Assembly (NCBI GenBank): GCA_030428125.1
Contig: JAUIBF010000001.1
Location: 14,102-78,101, forward strand
Direction: 5' to 3'
Source of the DNA: a bacterium
GTDB lineage: Bacteria; Patescibacteriota; Saccharimonadia; Saccharimonadales; SZUA-47
Length of the DNA: 64,000 nucleotides
In this document: positions 50,345-56,251 of the stretch, piece after piece
Layout of the letters: every line of letters begins with the position of its first letter
Position numbering within the stretch: the stretch's first letter is position 1
The notes under the pieces: model-generated
What the model was told of the DNA's origin: nothing
The model's input: the letters and a program-made list of their open reading frames with translations, nothing else
Databases searched by the model: none
Made by a program: the position numbers and the translations under genes

Positions 50345-50689
50345 TTACTTATTGGACGTAAAGTCAATTCTTAGTTGGGCCATTAGTTCGACGGCACGTT
50401 TTGGGATGGGGCTATCGACCGTGAATCTAACAACGCCTTTACTATGGTCTAACTCCGGAAATTCTTCGATAACTACTGATACAATTCGTGGATCAAACGG
50501 ATAGACATTTAATCCGTGCTTGTTATCGCTGAAACCAATCAAGGGCTTGTTGTTAAGTTTGAATGCTGGCAGGCCGTAGCTCAAGCCTTCGACTGCATCC
50601 GGTGCTAGTTCTATAACGGTATCAATCACGCATTTTTTTAAACACTGTGCCTCATCACTATCAAGGCTACTCAAATAATCACTAAACAT
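50345..50689 (-). CDS. DUF1801 (YdhG-like) domain protein
   Basis: LSYGLPAFKLNNKPLIGFSDNKHGLNVYPF is typical of DUF1801. Confidence 0.6.
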   Translation of the reverse strand: MFSDYLSSLDSDEAQCLKKCVIDTVIELAPDAVEGLSYGLPAFKLNNKPLIGFSDNKHGLNVYPFDPRIVSVVIEEFPELDHSKGVVRFTVDSPIPKRAVELMAQLRIDFTSNK

Positions 50690-50705
50690 ATCCTAATTGT
50701 AGCTC

Positions 50706-50734
50706 AAAATAAAAACCCCATCCATGGGATGAGG
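50706..50734 (-). terminator. orphaned Rho-independent terminator (probable original tRNA-fMet terminator)
   Basis: In minus sense: CCTCATCC-cat-GGATGGGG followed by TTTTTATTTT. It starts 9 nt after the left copy of the tRNA 3'-end repeat. Confidence 0.6.
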
Positions 50735-50742
50735 TTCATATT

Positions 50743-50751
50743 TTGGTAGCG
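50743..50751. repeat. left direct repeat (attL core) TTGGTAGCG
   Basis: Identical to 56176-56184, the last 8 nt of the tRNA plus 1 flanking nt. Confidence 0.6.
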
Positions 50752-50862
50752 CGCCTAAAATCGGATTGGAACCTAATCTGTTCAGAGCTTAGCCGCTGGA
50801 AACAGCAATTAGAGGTGGCACAAGATGTTATGTGGACTGGCAGTTAGGAGTGGAACGGATTC

Positions 50863-52767
50863 TTAAACTAGGTTCTTTTCTATGTAGTCTTTAAGGTCTT
50901 TCACGAACTTAGCATAGTCAGACGTAATGTCGTCATACTTAAAGCTATCAAATACTGCCGTCTTAAGCTCTTTAAAGATCGTTTTGATCTCGTCACTGTT
51001 TCTGCCGTCGCTGATCAGCTGGTCTTTGATGTATTTAAGCTTGTTATGTGCCGGCAGGCTTGAGGCGCTTACAGTGAACTCGTTGCCTAGTTTTTTAGTT
51101 ACTGCGCTAACTGAACTAGAAAGAAGCTCATTCTTAATAAAGTCTTCGCCAGTTATCGCATTAGTATTTTTTGAAATCTGCTTGTAGGTCAGCCATTTGA
51201 TTTCATGACCCCACTCATTGTAGTTTTTCTGATTATCCTTAGCCGCTGTATCGTTATCACTTACGATGAGCCCCTTTCTCTCAGCAGCTTCAAGCGTAGG
51301 CACTAAGGACCTGAACGAAGGTGCCCCGGAACCATGAACAATACCAAGCTGGCTAAAGAACTGTTTGTGGTTTTTCGTAGTGTACTTCTTAAATAACTGC
51401 TTGTCTCTCCAGCCCTCAAAAAGCAGGTTTACCTCTTTTAGATGTTCGAAAGTAGAATAGTTAATTGCATTGAATATAACTTCTTCATCTACAATATTTC
51501 CTTCGTTTCCTTCCTCTAAACTAGTTACTTCGCGATCCTTTCTTACAATATAGTGCCTTGAAATATCATGTCTATCGATCATAAAAATAGAGTGAGTCGA
51601 GTAGACTACCTGATTATTTGTTGATACTTTCAGCAACTCATCCCTAAAGTACCTTGCCCCGGAGGGGTGAAGGCCGATTTCTGGTTCGTCAATCAGTATA
51701 AGCGCGTCCTGGAGCTTACCAGTATGTGAGGTGCTCGAAATACTAAGCAGGAAAGCAATGAACTTCTTGAACCCGTCACTCCTGTCTTTGAATTGGAAAT
51801 CGTTCTCTTCAGATATGCTGCACTGTATTTTTGTCCCGTCCATTTGCAAAGTAAAACTAACATCACCATACTCTTTCCAGACAGTTGCTAAATACTCGGT
51901 CGCTTTTTCGTGGACTCTTTTTAGTAGGTTGTTTAAGCGTGTTGGACCTTTTTCTTTTTCTGCTTTAATAGTGCTCGGTATATCTTCAATCCCCGCCAGA
52001 TTAAACATGTTCTTTAGTGAAAGAAACTTTTTAGGATCTTCCATGAACTTGGCTAAATTAACGTGAGACGGCAAGAAGTCCTGCTCTTCAAACTCCCAAA
52101 AAATAACTTCAGGCAGATTGTCCTTCATGTACTGGATTAAGCTGCCGTGAACAAGATCTGAAAAGTTGTCAAAAGTTGCTACCGCGAGATAGCCCTCAGG
52201 AATTTTTTGGTGTTCTTCTTCTGACAACTTGGCTAGCTTTAATGCGCCTAATGTTGTCTTTAGTCCTTCTTCGTCAGTATACTCAAAGTCTTCGGGGCAT
52301 TTTGAGGTTATCTTATACCAGCCGTCTGTAATGTCGTACTTCTCGTCATATGTAAAATATTGACCAGATTTACTTTCTTTAGGGACATTAACCTTGTATT
52401 GGAGGTGTTCAAATGTTCTTATGAAACCGTATACAGTAAGCGCCTCGTCACCTATACTCGCAATTTTAGCCCTTGGCCCGGCTAGGATTTGAGCATTTAA
52501 AATATCCCTAACTGCCTCGTGATCCTTCTTCTCAAGCTTAAACTTAAACTTGATGCACGATTCATCAACCTGCGCCTCATCTCCTAGAGGCTGCCTCTCG
52601 TCTGACTTGTGGGGTGCGTATTCTGGTGAAAGTGTTGCAAGGGCGTTTAGTACGTTTGATTTGCCCGACTCATTAATACCAACTAAAACTCTGCAGCTTG
52701 GATCAAATGTAACAACCTGATGTTTTATAGACCTGTAGTTTATGATTGTTGATTCTACTAGTTTCAT
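50863..52767 (-). CDS. OLD-family / PARIS-like ATPase-TOPRIM protein
   Basis: Walker A GINESGKSNVLNAL and Walker B LILIDEPEIGLHP. The C-terminus LLFEGWRDKQLF ... LIVSDNDTA fits the TOPRIM E-G and DxD motifs. Confidence 0.6.
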   Translation of the reverse strand: MKLVESTIINYRSIKHQVVTFDPSCRVLVGINESGKSNVLNALATLSPEYAPHKSDERQPLGDEAQVDESCIKFKFKLEKKDHEAVRDILNAQILAGPRAKIASIGDEALTVYGFIRTFEHLQYKVNVPKESKSGQYFTYDEKYDITDGWYKITSKCPEDFEYTDEEGLKTTLGALKLAKLSEEEHQKIPEGYLAVATFDNFSDLVHGSLIQYMKDNLPEVIFWEFEEQDFLPSHVNLAKFMEDPKKFLSLKNMFNLAGIEDIPSTIKAEKEKGPTRLNNLLKRVHEKATEYLATVWKEYGDVSFTLQMDGTKIQCSISEENDFQFKDRSDGFKKFIAFLLSISSTSHTGKLQDALILIDEPEIGLHPSGARYFRDELLKVSTNNQVVYSTHSIFMIDRHDISRHYIVRKDREVTSLEEGNEGNIVDEEVIFNAINYSTFEHLKEVNLLFEGWRDKQLFKKYTTKNHKQFFSQLGIVHGSGAPSFRSLVPTLEAAERKGLIVSDNDTAAKDNQKNYNEWGHEIKWLTYKQISKNTNAITGEDFIKNELLSSSVSAVTKKLGNEFTVSASSLPAHNKLKYIKDQLISDGRNSDEIKTIFKELKTAVFDSFKYDDITSDYAKFVKDLKDYIEKNLV

Positions 52768-52857
52768 ATTTTGTAGCTTTTGTCATATTCCCACCACTTG
52801 GTTACAGTTTACATCTGCCACCTCTGTTTTACAAGATTAGCACTCAATACGTAGCCA

Positions 52858-52922
52858 GTACGCGCGCAGACATGTGTGTGCGCAGAGCATGTTTTGTAAG
52901 CAATACGTGCGCGTGTGCGCAG
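52858..52922. repeat. GC-rich alternating purine-pyrimidine tracts with a 10-nt direct repeat
   Basis: Alternating tracts at 52858-52868 (11 nt), 52870-52884 (15 nt) and 52903-52921 (19 nt). GTGTGCGCAG occurs at 52876-52885 and 52913-52922. Confidence 0.75.
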
Positions 52923-52927
52923 GTGAT

Positions 52928-53398
52928 CTATTGGTAGATATTTTCTACCGCATACATAGCAGATTCACCATTTGTGCCATGAATCAATTCAACAAAGCTC
53001 GGATTAACATCCAATAAGTAGCCCCAGCGCAGCATGTAGTCGTCAGCTTCTTTCGTACCAATCCTGCTATTTATGTGTCTAATTTCAGGAAAATAACAGA
53101 GATACAGCCACCGGAAGTGCAGTTTTGAGCCACGTGGAGCATTCTGGGCTTGCGTGTCGCGCTTTCTGACGAAGTATGTAATGAAAGCTAGGTCTGCAGC
53201 CTTCTTTCCGTCTGGGGTCATAGAATGTTTGACGTCCATGTACGTAATTGGCATGCCCAGCATGCTCTTTATGCGAATTTTGGATACATGCAAAAAGTCG
53301 AGCCTGGATTCTTTAGGTATGCGCTCGGTCCTGTTCATGCCAAGCCAGTGGAACTTCAGCGGCTGATATTTACTGACAAACTTGTCAAATGATTGCAT
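52928..53398 (-). CDS. hypothetical protein (element cargo)
   Basis: 156 aa with no recognised motif. It starts 3 nt after the upstream stop. Confidence 0.5.
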   Translation of the reverse strand: MQSFDKFVSKYQPLKFHWLGMNRTERIPKESRLDFLHVSKIRIKSMLGMPITYMDVKHSMTPDGKKAADLAFITYFVRKRDTQAQNAPRGSKLHFRWLYLCYFPEIRHINSRIGTKEADDYMLRWGYLLDVNPSFVELIHGTNGESAMYAVENIYQ

Positions 53399-53401
53399 GC
53401 C

Positions 53402-53806
53402 TTAGAGCTGATGCATTATCCGAATAAACACGATAGCAGCTACTATCGGAAATAAGAAACCTGCGGCTGATGTGATTGTGAAAAATACTAATTTTGGCAC
53501 ATCATGTAACGCTCCGGGTTTTTCTTGTCCAAGCATCATGAGTGCGCCGTCACGGTCGTTCATAGCATGGATTGATTTGATCTTTCTTAGCTTTAGTAAA
53601 AAGAACGGTATTGATGCAAATGAGATAACAAATATACCGGGCAAAAATAACAAAACCGTAGACAATGAAACGAAAGTGCCAGTTATGATGCTGTAGATCA
53701 AACCTGCAGTTAACCACCAAAAGATAACACTCTTTGAATATGATGTTGCCGACATGTTGTATTCATCAGCATCAACACCTGCGACCTTCTTTTTCTTTTC
53801 TGCCAT
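53402..53806 (-). CDS. small 3-TM membrane protein (element cargo)
   Basis: The start is the ATG 53804-53806, which has a GAAGGAG SD (the ORF track extends to 53905). It has three hydrophobic helices. Confidence 0.5.
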   Translation of the reverse strand: MAEKKKKVAGVDADEYNMSATSYSKSVIFWWLTAGLIYSIITGTFVSLSTVLLFLPGIFVISFASIPFFLLKLRKIKSIHAMNDRDGALMMLGQEKPGALHDVPKLVFFTITSAAGFLFPIVAAIVFIRIMHQL

Positions 53807-54206
53807 TGCTACTCCTTCGTTAATTAGGTGCGAGCAATCAAAAAGCCCGTCACGAGCGACAGCCTTTCGACCATCCATCACCGTTTCCAGCAATGACATC
53901 AACAAGAAGTACTCATGACGAGCTGTTTCTTGTTGATGATTTGATGACCATGCCGGCAGAACCGGGTTAGGTCTAGTGGATTAACCACTTGAAGACATTA
54001 TATCTTGTTTGTGTACAATGACTACCAGTAAATATACTAAATAACATAAGCATTATCCTTGCAAATTTGTGTTCGGCCACGTATGCTGTACTTAACTGTC
54101 CCACTGATCAAGGACGAAAAAAGGATCACATCATTAACCATAAATAGTAAAGGAGATTCAAAAACAAAATATCTGCGAGGCTATAACTAATAAGAGGAAG
54201 CCGGAT

Positions 54207-54476
54207 ATGAAAAAACTACATAAACATTCAACTGCATACCGAATGCAGTACGTAACTAGTGACAGATTTTTAGTAGCTGCACTGATTAGTAATGGGCTTA
54301 GTCCAGAAGTAATTGCTAAGACGAAGGCAGGCGTCATGTTCTATACATTTAAGCGCAGTCAGCGTTTTACGAGACTACTAGAACGTTACGAAAATAACAC
54401 GCTCAAGGTGAAAACAGACTACTACGATCGAGTTTGCGAGATGCATTACGAACCCTTCGATTGGGGTAATGACTAG
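54207..54476 (+). CDS. DUF5659-like small protein
   Basis: The TSDRFLVAALISNGL...FYTFKRS...Y pattern resembles DUF5659 proteins common in phage and CPR elements. An AAGAGGAAG SD lies upstream. Confidence 0.4.
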   Translation: MKKLHKHSTAYRMQYVTSDRFLVAALISNGLSPEVIAKTKAGVMFYTFKRSQRFTRLLERYENNTLKVKTDYYDRVCEMHYEPFDWGND

Positions 54477-54594
54477 CAAGGAGGCTCGTAAGCTCCTTGG
54501 CAAACAAGCGCAGGAAATGTCCGATGATGAGGTACAACACTTCATCGAGTTTCTTGTTGCCTGCGCCAAGGAGCGCCTTGGAGTCAAGGTGTAA
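54469..54594 (+). CDS. 41-aa ORF upstream of the recombinase (possible directionality factor)
   Basis: Hand translation gives MTSKEARKLLGKQAQEMSDDEVQHFIEFLVACAKERLGVKV. It overlaps the upstream stop. The functional suggestion rests on position only. Confidence 0.3.
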   Translation: MTSKEARKLLGKQAQEMSDDEVQHFIEFLVACAKERLGVKV

Positions 54595-54642
54595 AAAGAG
54601 CCAATAACACTATAAAATAGTTGTAGTGAAAGGTACAACACT

Positions 54643-56220
54643 ATGAATAATCAAAGAACCAAGAAAGCCGTTGCATATATTAGGGTTTCAAGCACTATGC
54701 AAAAGGACAACGAAAGTCCTGATACGCAACACGCAAAAATTCAGGAATATGCTAACTCAAATGGGATTGAGATTATCAAAGACGGCTGGTTCTTTGATGA
54801 AGCAAAAAGTGGTAAAAATGCAGACCGTGAAGAGCTGCAGAACATGCTTAAGTTTGCTCTTTCGCGGAGAGACAAGATTGATCACGTAATAGTTTACAAA
54901 ATGAGCCGCGCTTCTAGGGACCTGTACTCATACATCACACAAGTGCAAATGGCACTAAGATCAAAAGGTATCACAATGAGATCCGCCACGGAGCCAATTG
55001 ATGATACAAAAATGGGAAGGTTCATGGAAAACTTGTACGTCATACTTGCCCAGCTCGATAATGACAGCAAAGCAGAATATACGCTCGATAACATGAAATC
55101 GCTTGCCGCGCAGGGCTATTATCAACACTCGCCACCGACTGGATACGATAACGCTAAGCTGCCTAATGCTATGGGGAAGCCAAGACCTTCGCTTAAACAA
55201 AATGACATGGCGCCAAAAGTAAAGAATGTCCTCGAAAGGTTTAGTAAGGGTGGTATCACGAAAGCCGAGCTCAAAAGATATGCCGATTCTATCGGATTGA
55301 GGAGTAGGTATGGCAAGAAGATGAGTGAAGATTCAATTAATCGCATGCTTGGCAATGCGACATATGCAGGCTTTATTAAGGATAGATTCACTGATCACAA
55401 ACAAGTAGCTGGTAGGCATGAGCCAATCATTACCCCAGAAGTTTATGAGTTAAACCAGGCGCTTCTTTACGGCAGGAACACCCGTAAAGATGAGGTACAC
55501 AAGCGTAAGAACGAGAGCTATGTACTGAAAGGAACATTGATGTGTATCGGATGTAACAACCCTTTGTACGCTTCGGCGCCACGCACTGGAAATGGTGGAT
55601 ATTCTCCAAGATATCATTGTGGACGCGGCTGTAAATCACCATCCATAAAAGCAAATATTGTGCATGAGGACTTTGAGCGTTTGCTTGATGAGCTTAAGCC
55701 TTCTGAAGGCGTGCTCAAATTGTACAAACAAGTGTTGATTCAAGAAGCCAATAAGGCACTAGGCGCTCTTAATGGCCGTATATCAGCTGTACGAGATGAG
55801 CTTGACGAGATTGCTGTAAAACGGGCTAACGGAATTGAAATGTTCGCCGGTGGAGAGTTGTCTATAGAAGAAAAGAACGTATTAATAGACAGTTTGGATC
55901 AAAAGAAGCTAGAAACCCAATTAAGACTGCATGACCTTGAGCAACTGCAGAATATTCGTGAATCTGACATAGATGCTGCGATCAACTTTATGGGTAGCGT
56001 CAACGAGCAGTGGAAGAACAGTAACTTCGATAACAGAGTTAGGTTCCAAAACATACTATTTCCTCAAGGTATTACGTATAATCTCGCCGAACAAGAGTTT
56101 GGAACCTCACAAATGAGTCCGCTTTATAGATTGGTGGAACGAAAAAGAGACTCCGGAGAGTCTCAAAAATCTTACTTGGTAGCGGGGGCAGGACTCGAAC
56201 CTGCGACCTCTTGGTTATGA
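54643..56220 (+). CDS. large serine recombinase (integrase)
   Basis: The N-terminal resolvase domain AVAYIRVSSTMQ contains the catalytic Ser region, with the later YKMSRASRD. A recombinase domain, the Cys cluster CIGCNNPLY...YHCGRGC and a coiled coil follow. The last 44 nt are antisense to the tRNA. Confidence 0.85.
   Translation: MNNQRTKKAVAYIRVSSTMQKDNESPDTQHAKIQEYANSNGIEIIKDGWFFDEAKSGKNADREELQNMLKFALSRRDKIDHVIVYKMSRASRDLYSYITQVQMALRSKGITMRSATEPIDDTKMGRFMENLYVILAQLDNDSKAEYTLDNMKSLAAQGYYQHSPPTGYDNAKLPNAMGKPRPSLKQNDMAPKVKNVLERFSKGGITKAELKRYADSIGLRSRYGKKMSEDSINRMLGNATYAGFIKDRFTDHKQVAGRHEPIITPEVYELNQALLYGRNTRKDEVHKRKNESYVLKGTLMCIGCNNPLYASAPRTGNGGYSPRYHCGRGCKSPSIKANIVHEDFERLLDELKPSEGVLKLYKQVLIQEANKALGALNGRISAVRDELDEIAVKRANGIEMFAGGELSIEEKNVLIDSLDQKKLETQLRLHDLEQLQNIRESDIDAAINFMGSVNEQWKNSNFDNRVRFQNILFPQGITYNLAEQEFGTSQMSPLYRLVERKRDSGESQKSYLVAGAGLEPATSWL
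56176..56184. repeat. right direct repeat (attR core) TTGGTAGCG
   Basis: Identical to 50743-50751. Confidence 0.6.
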
Positions 56221-56251
56221 GCCAAGCGAGCTGCCGCTGCTCCACCCCGCG
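56177..56251 (-). tRNA. tRNA-Met (CAT), initiator-like
   Basis: The reverse complement is CGCGGGGTGGAGCAGCGGCAGCTCGCTTGGCTCATAACCAAGAGGTCGCAGGTTCGAGTCCTGCCCCCGCTACCA. The 5' CGCGGGGTGGAGCAGC and the unpaired 1:72 position resemble bacterial tRNA-fMet. Confidence 0.85.

Follow-up and report, generated by a model that had tools for sequence, protein, structure and literature searches.

A predicted OLD-family nuclease as the single cargo gene of a small integrative element at tRNA-Met, beside an operon headed by a LOOT RNA

This analysis concerns three neighbouring genes, and the integrative element that carries them, in a stretch of 64,000 nucleotides (nt) from contig JAUIBF010000001.1, hereafter the window, to which all coordinates refer unless another locus is named. 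A first-pass annotation had described three co-oriented genes spaced by 3 and 160 nt and had proposed that they form a new OLD-type defence system with a membrane component. The coordinates of the open reading frames (ORFs) bear out the described arrangement, with all three genes on the minus strand. Protein lengths are given in amino acids (aa), and TM stands for transmembrane.

53402..53806, minus strand: TM134, a three-TM protein of 134 aa and one of at least three alternative "slot 1" genes of the element family
52928..53398, minus strand: p156, an orphan protein of 156 aa and the "slot 2" accessory gene of the element family
52768..52927, minus strand: spacer of 160 nt between p156 and the OLD gene, which holds the junction between backbone and cargo
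50863..52767, minus strand: OLD-family nuclease of 634 aa (ABC-ATPase and Toprim), the only gene in the cargo slot

The 3-nt gap between TM134 and p156 lies at 53399-53401. Each of the three ORFs has homologues elsewhere, and we therefore regard them as real genes rather than products of chance. TM134 starts with an ATG at 53806, 6 nt after the sequence GAAGGAG, which gives the length of 134 aa. Since its hydropathy profile contains hydrophobic stretches at about residues 26-76, where two helices fit, and at 105-134, where one fits, the protein is compatible with three TM segments, in agreement with the earlier description.

The 634-aa protein carries the motifs GINESGKS at residue 30, LILIDEPEIGLHP at residue 356 and YSTHSIF (H-loop) at residue 389, followed on the Toprim side by LLFEGWRDKQLF at residue 448 and LIVSDNDTA at residue 500; all of the Walker A, Walker B and EG…DxD motifs named by the first-pass annotation could thus be located. 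It accordingly contains both an N-terminal ABC-type ATPase, in which Walker A, Walker B, D-loop and H-loop are present, and a Toprim domain at the C-terminus that has a conserved Glu and DxD. The best PADLOC model was Old (3.9e-30, covering residues 339-580), followed by AriA (1.2e-24, ATPase half only) and, far behind, GajA (6e-14) and fused AriAB (4e-14). Pfam returned AAA_15 (8.6e-24) and AAA_21 (6.8e-20) as well as a weak signal for DUF2813, a YbjD-type N-terminus that is annotated in most of the homologues. A profile built from 37 homologues matched GajA and the Thermus scotoductus OLD protein (Ts OLD, 6p74) in the PDB from Walker B through EGxxD and DxD, with FEGWRD opposite EGpsEK and SDNDTA opposite TDND of GajA. 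The AlphaFold2 (AF2) model was confident (predicted local distance difference test, pLDDT, 89.2) and contained a beta-alpha Toprim core at residues 446-527. When it was compared with the PDB by Foldseek, the top matches extended over the full length and were GajA (8x5i, 4.3e-15), Ts OLD (8.5e-15) and the retron-Eco8 effector. The earlier assignment to the OLD-type ATPase-TOPRIM proteins is therefore borne out by PADLOC, PDB profile matches, AF2 and Foldseek alike, and the lack of a TOPRIM or DUF4435 fold, which had been named as grounds for giving it up, does not apply, as the Toprim domain is seen in profile alignment, model and fold search.

The residues K36, D360, E361, H367, H392, E451, D455, D504, D506, E541 and D542 are invariant in the 37 homologues. 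In P2 Old, residues including K37, D299, H306, H332, E398, E402, D453 and D455 are essential (PMC7049728), and the invariant residues of the 634-aa protein match these essential residues in type and order. By sequence and structural model, the protein is an OLD-family ATPase-Toprim nuclease, with nuclease and ATPase activities predicted. The family is large: it has over 1,294 homologues, and the taxa with full-length relatives (about 625-640 aa) include Saccharibacteria, Parcubacteria, Gammaproteobacteria, Acidobacteria, Comamonas, Pirellulales and Nitrospira. In the phage collections no record gave a BLAST-level match over more than 40% of the query, and phage and plasmid collections together yielded just remote partial matches.

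The defining feature of Class 1 OLD proteins is that they have no partner gene (PMC7049728, PMC10568477). Within the element, no UvrD-like helicase, reverse transcriptase or separate DUF4435 gene was found, as the first-pass annotation had noted for the partners of Gabija and PARIS. Because partner absence defines the Class 1 context, the missing partner is no anomaly here, and by genomic context and best profile model the 634-aa protein belongs with the Class 1 OLDs. Like P2 Old, Ts OLD (6P74), Vc OLD and YbjD, it is without helicase, retron or AriB partner and has the same Walker A Lys, Walker B Asp-Glu, D-loop and H-loop His, EGxxD and DxD ligands; like P2 old, its gene lies on a mobile element. 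It differs from the characterised Class 1 proteins in its only remote sequence similarity (14% identity to Ts OLD), in its length (634 versus 528-586 aa) and in its host lineage, which is apparently Patescibacteria.

The other OLD classes fit less well. GajA of Gabija (Class 2) is the top structural match over its full length, has a similar length and likewise possesses a helical C-terminal region. However, no GajB or other UvrD-like helicase follows downstream in the window, where the OLD stop codon is succeeded by the element end and the attachment (att) core, and a Pfam scan of the genes immediately beside five orthologue loci showed no helicase. For Class 3, the retron effectors, the element contains no reverse transcriptase ORF, its only non-coding RNA is a LOOT RNA and not a retron RNA, and the NCBIfam model of the retron Eco8 effector reached 41 bits with the 634-aa protein against a cutoff of 250. 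AriA of PARIS (Class 4) has a similar ABC ATPase of the AAA_15/AAA_21 type and is often found on mobile elements, but the protein described here is a single fused polypeptide with an OLD-like Toprim domain, without a separate AriB, a second Toprim gene or a match to DUF4435, and the fused AriAB model scored poorly in comparison with Old.

The gene resides in an element of which several relatives, here called sister elements and designated by locus numbers (L), could be compared.

50752-56184: integrative element of 5,433 bp, inserted in the 3' end of tRNA-Met and bounded by 9-nt repeats

The common backbone consists of a large serine recombinase, a 41-aa ORF (called in several members) and a DUF5659 protein and, in divergent orientation, a LOOT RNA, a slot 1 gene and optionally p156. 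The elements were found to differ in slot 1, in p156 and in cargo as follows, with the defence assignments of sister-element cargo made by PADLOC.

Window: slot 1 TM134; p156 present; cargo OLD
L090: slot 1 TM134; p156 present; contig ends before the cargo
L087/L088: slot 1 TM134; p156 absent; genes for 80, 217 and 737 aa and a Type II methyltransferase (L087 3344-7697)
L089: slot 1 TM134; p156 absent; M78 peptidase/HTH and a 243-aa gene (L089 3145-5053)
L002: slot 1 an unrelated soluble protein of 182 aa; p156 present; PD-Lambda-5 A/B, 1.7e-31 and 9.9e-113 (L002 3700-6037)
L004: slot 1 the 182-aa protein; p156 present; M78/HTH and genes for 243 and 206 aa (L004 3694-6372)
L005: slot 1 the 182-aa protein; p156 present; AbiLi, 6.8e-65, and DUF6119 (L005 2878-5904)
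L095: slot 1 a third protein, of 150 aa; p156 present; contig ends before the cargo

By blastn, the window and the sister elements lose homology within the spacer, at about 52855-52896, and regain it at 50857, which lies 6 nt beyond the OLD stop codon. The cargo slot thus spans about 50858-52890 with OLD as its sole gene, and because homology breaks off on both sides, OLD and some 125 nt upstream of it constitute a discrete cassette of about 2 kb. To judge from the closest sister elements, in which other defence systems occupy the same position, the slot is exchangeable, and by the same positional argument the unnamed cargo genes of the sister elements are candidates for new defence genes. A mobility backbone with one sharply bounded slot for swapped defence systems is likewise seen in P2/P4 hotspots, phage-inducible chromosomal islands (PICIs), SCCmec-adjacent cassettes and pipolins. 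In contrast to these, the present element has a far smaller size of 5.4 kb and just one cargo gene, relies on a large serine recombinase that targets the 3' end of tRNA-Met, contains a LOOT RNA, is devoid of phage, capsid-hijack or conjugation genes and has no close relatives in IMG/VR. At the junction between backbone and cargo, on the minus strand at 52876-52933, two imperfect, GCGC-rich direct repeats (GTGTGCGCAG…) occur 37 nt apart; they could represent an operator or a recombination scar.

The contents of the slot also bear on the question of whom the nuclease serves. It might act for the element itself, by attacking rival mobile elements or aiding the processing of its own DNA, or it might have a housekeeping function such as that of archaeal Cran1. 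P2 Old is indeed the weapon of one mobile element against another phage (PMC7049728, PMC10568477), and an archaeal OLD-family ATPase has a role in the cell cycle (PMC12796447). However, the same slot elsewhere holds PD-Lambda-5, AbiLi and methyltransferase modules, orthologues outside the element family adjoin SIR2-like, Type I restriction-modification (RM) and toxin genes, and OLD is dispensable for the family, most members being without it. We consider such a role quite unlikely.

For the co-occurrence check that the first-pass annotation had itself named beforehand, p156 and TM134 were compared by tblastn with 13 loci containing full-length OLD homologues. These loci stem from at least six phyla-level groups, from Saccharibacteria to Planctomycetes, and include the three closest homologues (52-54% identity). 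Neither small gene was present at any of the 13. Conversely, seven other elements carry one or other small gene, and OLD was absent from the six among them with readable cargo. The neighbours of the OLD homologues were mixed (SIR2-like, ParE, Type I R subunit, LysR, DUF4143, cytidine deaminase and P-type ATPase), and no neighbour gene was shared across the 13 loci, nor was a helicase or reverse transcriptase found among them. Homologues of p156 and TM134 with readable context, on the other hand, always lie in the backbone of serine recombinase, 41-aa ORF, DUF5659 and LOOT. The small genes track the element backbone and are missing from other OLD loci, and hence we do not regard them as partners of OLD.

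The proposal that TM134, p156 and OLD are one three-component defence system, with the small proteins as sensors of infection or regulators of the nuclease, is thus already largely refuted by the co-occurrence test. In its favour are the co-oriented, tightly packed genes with their 3-nt gap, the lack of a clear terminator before OLD, and L093, a distant element in which the order of LOOT, small membrane proteins and OLD is repeated. However, TM134 goes together with methyltransferase or M78/HTH cargo and p156 with PD-Lambda-5, AbiLi or M78/HTH, the homology break falls between p156 and OLD, and the small proteins of L093 are unrelated in sequence to either. We therefore rate a three-component system as very unlikely and see no "membrane-coupled OLD system" to chase; the nuclease belongs to a large and widely transferred clade of stand-alone OLD proteins. 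Nor is either small gene recognisable as a repressor or replication gene, the standard maintenance genes that the first-pass annotation had also named; they are orphan families tied to the element backbone.

Taken together, OLD is in our judgement likely to be a stand-alone nuclease of the Class 1 type and the sole cargo of the tRNA-Met element, with TM134 and p156 forming a separate LOOT-led operon and not acting as its partners. Single-gene Class 1 OLDs defend against phage (PMC7049728; PMC12392090; PMC13261556). Vc OLD is a nickase that blocks ICP1 replication and acts alone (PMC12392090), E. coli YbjD likewise acts alone (PMC13261556), as does P2 Old, and the P2 old locus is a defence hotspot (PMC10568477). 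By analogy with P2 Old, Ts OLD and Vc OLD, the protein would act on its own as an ATP-controlled dimeric ABC ATPase, the two-metal Toprim site of which would nick or degrade invading phage DNA and block phage replication. The TM134-p156 operon would be mixed and matched among sister elements independently of the defence system in the cargo slot.

Several observations weigh against this interpretation. The anti-phage activity of OLD is something we infer from characterised relatives. The Pfam model OLD-like_TOPRIM remained below threshold (E 0.031). In the AF2 model four helices follow residue 546, forming a helical C-terminal region of about 90 aa past the Toprim core that Ts OLD reportedly does not have, and Foldseek placed GajA marginally ahead of Ts OLD, so that structurally the protein is not a textbook Class 1 OLD. 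The sample is small, with 13 OLD contexts and seven distinct sister elements. All three genes point the same way, and no terminator or promoter that would convince was found in the 160-nt spacer, where a weak hairpin at 52921-52908 has no T-run; co-transcription, with read-through into OLD across the spacer, is thus possible. Finally, the distant LOOT element L093 (4611-9905; recombinase of 554 aa, 36% identical) carries an OLD homologue (52% identical) that is preceded by two small membrane proteins of 79 aa (one TM) and 73 aa (two TM), which may point to a loose functional link between membrane proteins of the LOOT slot and OLD. In L093, a PLD-like gene adjoins the recombinase.

Upstream of the two small genes, the following RNA and transcription signals were located.

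53997..54024, minus strand: promoter-like site TAGTCA-16-TATAAT, upstream of LOOT, 10/12 matches
53858..53973, minus strand: LOOT RNA (Rfam RF03000), 70.1 bits against a gathering score of 46.4, E 3.9e-12, model positions 1-121
53845..53857, minus strand: 5-bp hairpin followed by U5, immediately behind LOOT and some 40 nt ahead of the TM134 start; candidate for a terminator or attenuator

LOOT was found above the gathering score at the same place in eight loci representing seven other elements (62.8-80.9 bits), L093 included. The -10 box GATATAAT is kept in seven of the eight aligned elements, distant L093 being the one that differs, and the hairpin with U5 is kept in all eight with pair-preserving changes. 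The hairpin is followed by a Shine-Dalgarno sequence and then by the ATG of the slot 1 gene. Judged by this conserved arrangement, LOOT is the leader of the element family and heads the TM134-p156 operon; such a layout is compatible with a small RNA with read-through or, alternatively, with an attenuator acting in cis on the operon behind it. LOOT is not known to have an assigned organism or function in Rfam. A TTG start that would give the membrane ORF a length of 167 aa was rejected, as the N-terminal extension, conserved at first sight, is the translated LOOT RNA, and in L002 this LOOT-derived "extension" is out of frame with the downstream gene.

Both proteins encoded behind LOOT are rare. 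A search of 5.8 billion proteins returned four homologues of p156, and a profile search of 1.84 billion representatives returned 19 clusters; in the five other elements with readable context, p156 lies without exception behind LOOT in the same backbone. TM134 has seven homologues, and the contigs that were read (L087-L091) all contain this backbone with other cargo, the cargo of L090 being cut by the contig end. Neither protein gave a match in Pfam, PADLOC, NCBIfam, PHROGs or the PDB, as anticipated by the first-pass annotation, which could place them in no known family. With a profile of 22 sequences, p156 found nothing in the PDB even at E 10, and Pfam scans of the individual members returned noise. 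The AF2 model of p156, built on an alignment of five sequences, reached a pLDDT of 45.6 and was unusable for fold search. The 182-aa protein (p182), the DUF5659 protein and the 41-aa ORF likewise yielded nothing in searches of PHROGs, PADLOC and NCBIfam. Slot 1 is occupied by at least three unrelated families (TM134 and the soluble proteins of 182 aa and 150 aa), while p156 is optional. A small membrane protein is present in slot 1 of five of nine LOOT elements, L093 included.

It is conceivable that TM134, or in its place p182 or the 150-aa protein p150, forms with p156 a second, independent module, either a membrane exclusion or abortive-infection pair or an addiction system, in which case two unrelated systems, one of them novel, would stand side by side. 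Against a constant p156, slot 1 changes among three unrelated families, and the genes of slot 1 and p156 overlap or are separated by 0-3 nt, an arrangement suggestive of translational coupling. Both families are rare orphans that are restricted to the element family, and a structured RNA with terminator upstream is consistent with tight control of a potentially toxic product. However, homology in PADLOC, Pfam, PHROGs or the PDB is lacking, the structure prediction for p156 is poor, TM134 occurs without p156 in L087 and L089 and is thus not part of an obligate pair, and the proteins could equally be factors for excision, transfer or regulation. We regard a second module as possible but rather unlikely. 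TM134 and p156 are treated here as an accessory operon of the element that encodes orphan families. Our best guess is that they would serve the element by exclusion or addiction at the membrane, a speculative role, and would be expressed only upon read-through of the LOOT-adjacent terminator; alternatively, they could comprise a regulator or a recombination directionality factor.

The remaining features of the element and its borders are listed from left to right.

50705..50740, minus strand: intrinsic terminator (11-bp stem, then TTATTTTG), immediately beyond the distal att core
50743..50751, no strand assigned: distal att core TTGGTAGCG, 9 nt, left end of the element, identical to 56176-56184
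50752..50857, plus strand: conserved terminal block of about 105 nt just inside the distal core
54207..54476, plus strand: DUF5659 protein of 89 aa (Pfam PF18903, 1.2e-06), backbone, divergent from the LOOT operon, conserved in sister elements
54473..54595, plus strand: 41-aa ORF, backbone, with a gene called at the same position in L002, L087 and L089
54643..56220, plus strand: large serine recombinase, 525 aa in the integrated form (Pfam Resolvase 5e-28, Recombinase, Zn_ribbon_recom)
56176..56184, no strand assigned: proximal att core TTGGTAGCG, right end of the element, lying within the 3' end of tRNA-Met
56177..56251, minus strand: tRNA-Met (CAT), the integration target (ARAGORN; Rfam tRNA 62.5 bits)

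The recombinase has all three expected domains, and the 9-nt core is found at both ends of the element, once inside the tRNA-Met 3' end. The recombinase is 70-82% identical in the sister elements, and in L088 the same tRNA-Met lies beside it. The element is thus one moved by a large serine recombinase, with excision and integration predicted, and the first-pass description of the 634-aa gene as cargo of a small integrative element holds on account of att cores, tRNA-Met target and recombinase. Apart from the 9-nt core, no long tRNA-derived direct repeat was found in the window. Hairpins with compensatory changes lie at the position equivalent to that of the terminator in the sister loci, and the terminator at 50705..50740 is probably that of the host tRNA-Met, displaced by the insertion. 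A metagenome scan with the recombinase alignment returned five short contigs only, and in IMG/VR the recombinases found were all distant (24-35% identical) and the terminal block had no match.

The recombinase ORF overlaps tRNA-Met by 44 nt, and its final 14 codons run antisense to the tRNA gene. Joining of the two cores, as would happen in an excised circle, extends the ORF by 31 codons through 50752-50847 (…LVARLKSDWNLICSELSRWKQQLEVAQDVMWTGS*). This frame is open and ends at the same stop codon in six elements (…KSDWNLICSEL[S/N]RWK…), while the other two frames are full of stops, and codon switches within the tail keep the residue, with Ser encoded by TCA or AGT and Arg by CGC or AGA. The terminal block itself shows 73-83% blastn identity in all sister elements, whatever their cargo. 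Because the ratio of synonymous to non-synonymous pairwise differences is 57:108 and there is no third-position bias, selection on the tail appears mild. With moderate confidence we propose that the terminal block encodes the recombinase tail in the circular form, which would place attP inside the recombinase gene. If this coding interpretation is right, integration would swap the conserved 31-aa tail for 11 residues read antisense to the tRNA (GAGLEPATSWL). A structured RNA or tRNA-like gene was also considered for the terminal block and rejected; Rfam gave no match, ARAGORN nothing and RNAalifold just one invariant 6-bp helix besides the terminator. The intP/intX genes of phage Mx8 reportedly provide a parallel, attP apparently lying in the 3' end of the integrase gene there too and integration replacing the C-terminal tail. 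However, the Mx8 enzyme is said to be a tyrosine integrase, whereas a large serine recombinase is concerned here and the switch is deduced from sequence alone.

Several of these threads could be joined into one account, which we offer tentatively and with rather less than even confidence. Elements of 5-8 kb with a serine recombinase at tRNA-Met would make up a family that has apparently not been described and that, in small-genome bacteria (apparently Patescibacteria/Saccharibacteria), would carry single defence systems as minimal shuttles, in which the LOOT leader or attenuator gates a variable operon of small, often membrane proteins, the recombinase tail acts as a built-in directionality switch, and TM134 and p156 provide a new exclusion or addiction function. 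The OLD nuclease itself is of a known kind, and the value of follow-up lies in the carrier element, the LOOT leader, the orphan slot genes and the possible tail switch. Bacteria with reduced genomes and few catalogued defences can, by this route, swap whole systems (OLD, PD-Lambda-5, AbiL, RM-like) via one bounded slot. The orphan LOOT RNA gains a genomic home and a testable role, and the rare families p156 and TM134 become tractable through their fixed position behind it. If true, a switch of integration state in a large serine recombinase would be relevant to users of such enzymes in genome engineering.

Some further observations concern the element ends. A DUF1801-like gene of 114 aa (50345-50689, minus strand) starts 13 nt after the terminator, lies outside the element and is present in no sister element; an exact-match look-up of its protein, made for an empty site, returned the same contig only. 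In L002 (6900-7033) and L087 (7900-8054), and at equivalent places in L004 and L089, the conserved block is followed by 130-190 nt in which tRNA-Met-like fragments occur in either orientation, along with a second tRNA 3' end. This segment is missing from the window element. The additional fragments may be scars of tandem or repeated integration. In L001, L002, L004, L087 and L089 the contigs break inside or beside tRNA-Met at the recombinase end, which fits either a presence/absence polymorphism of the element or an assembly break induced by repeats.

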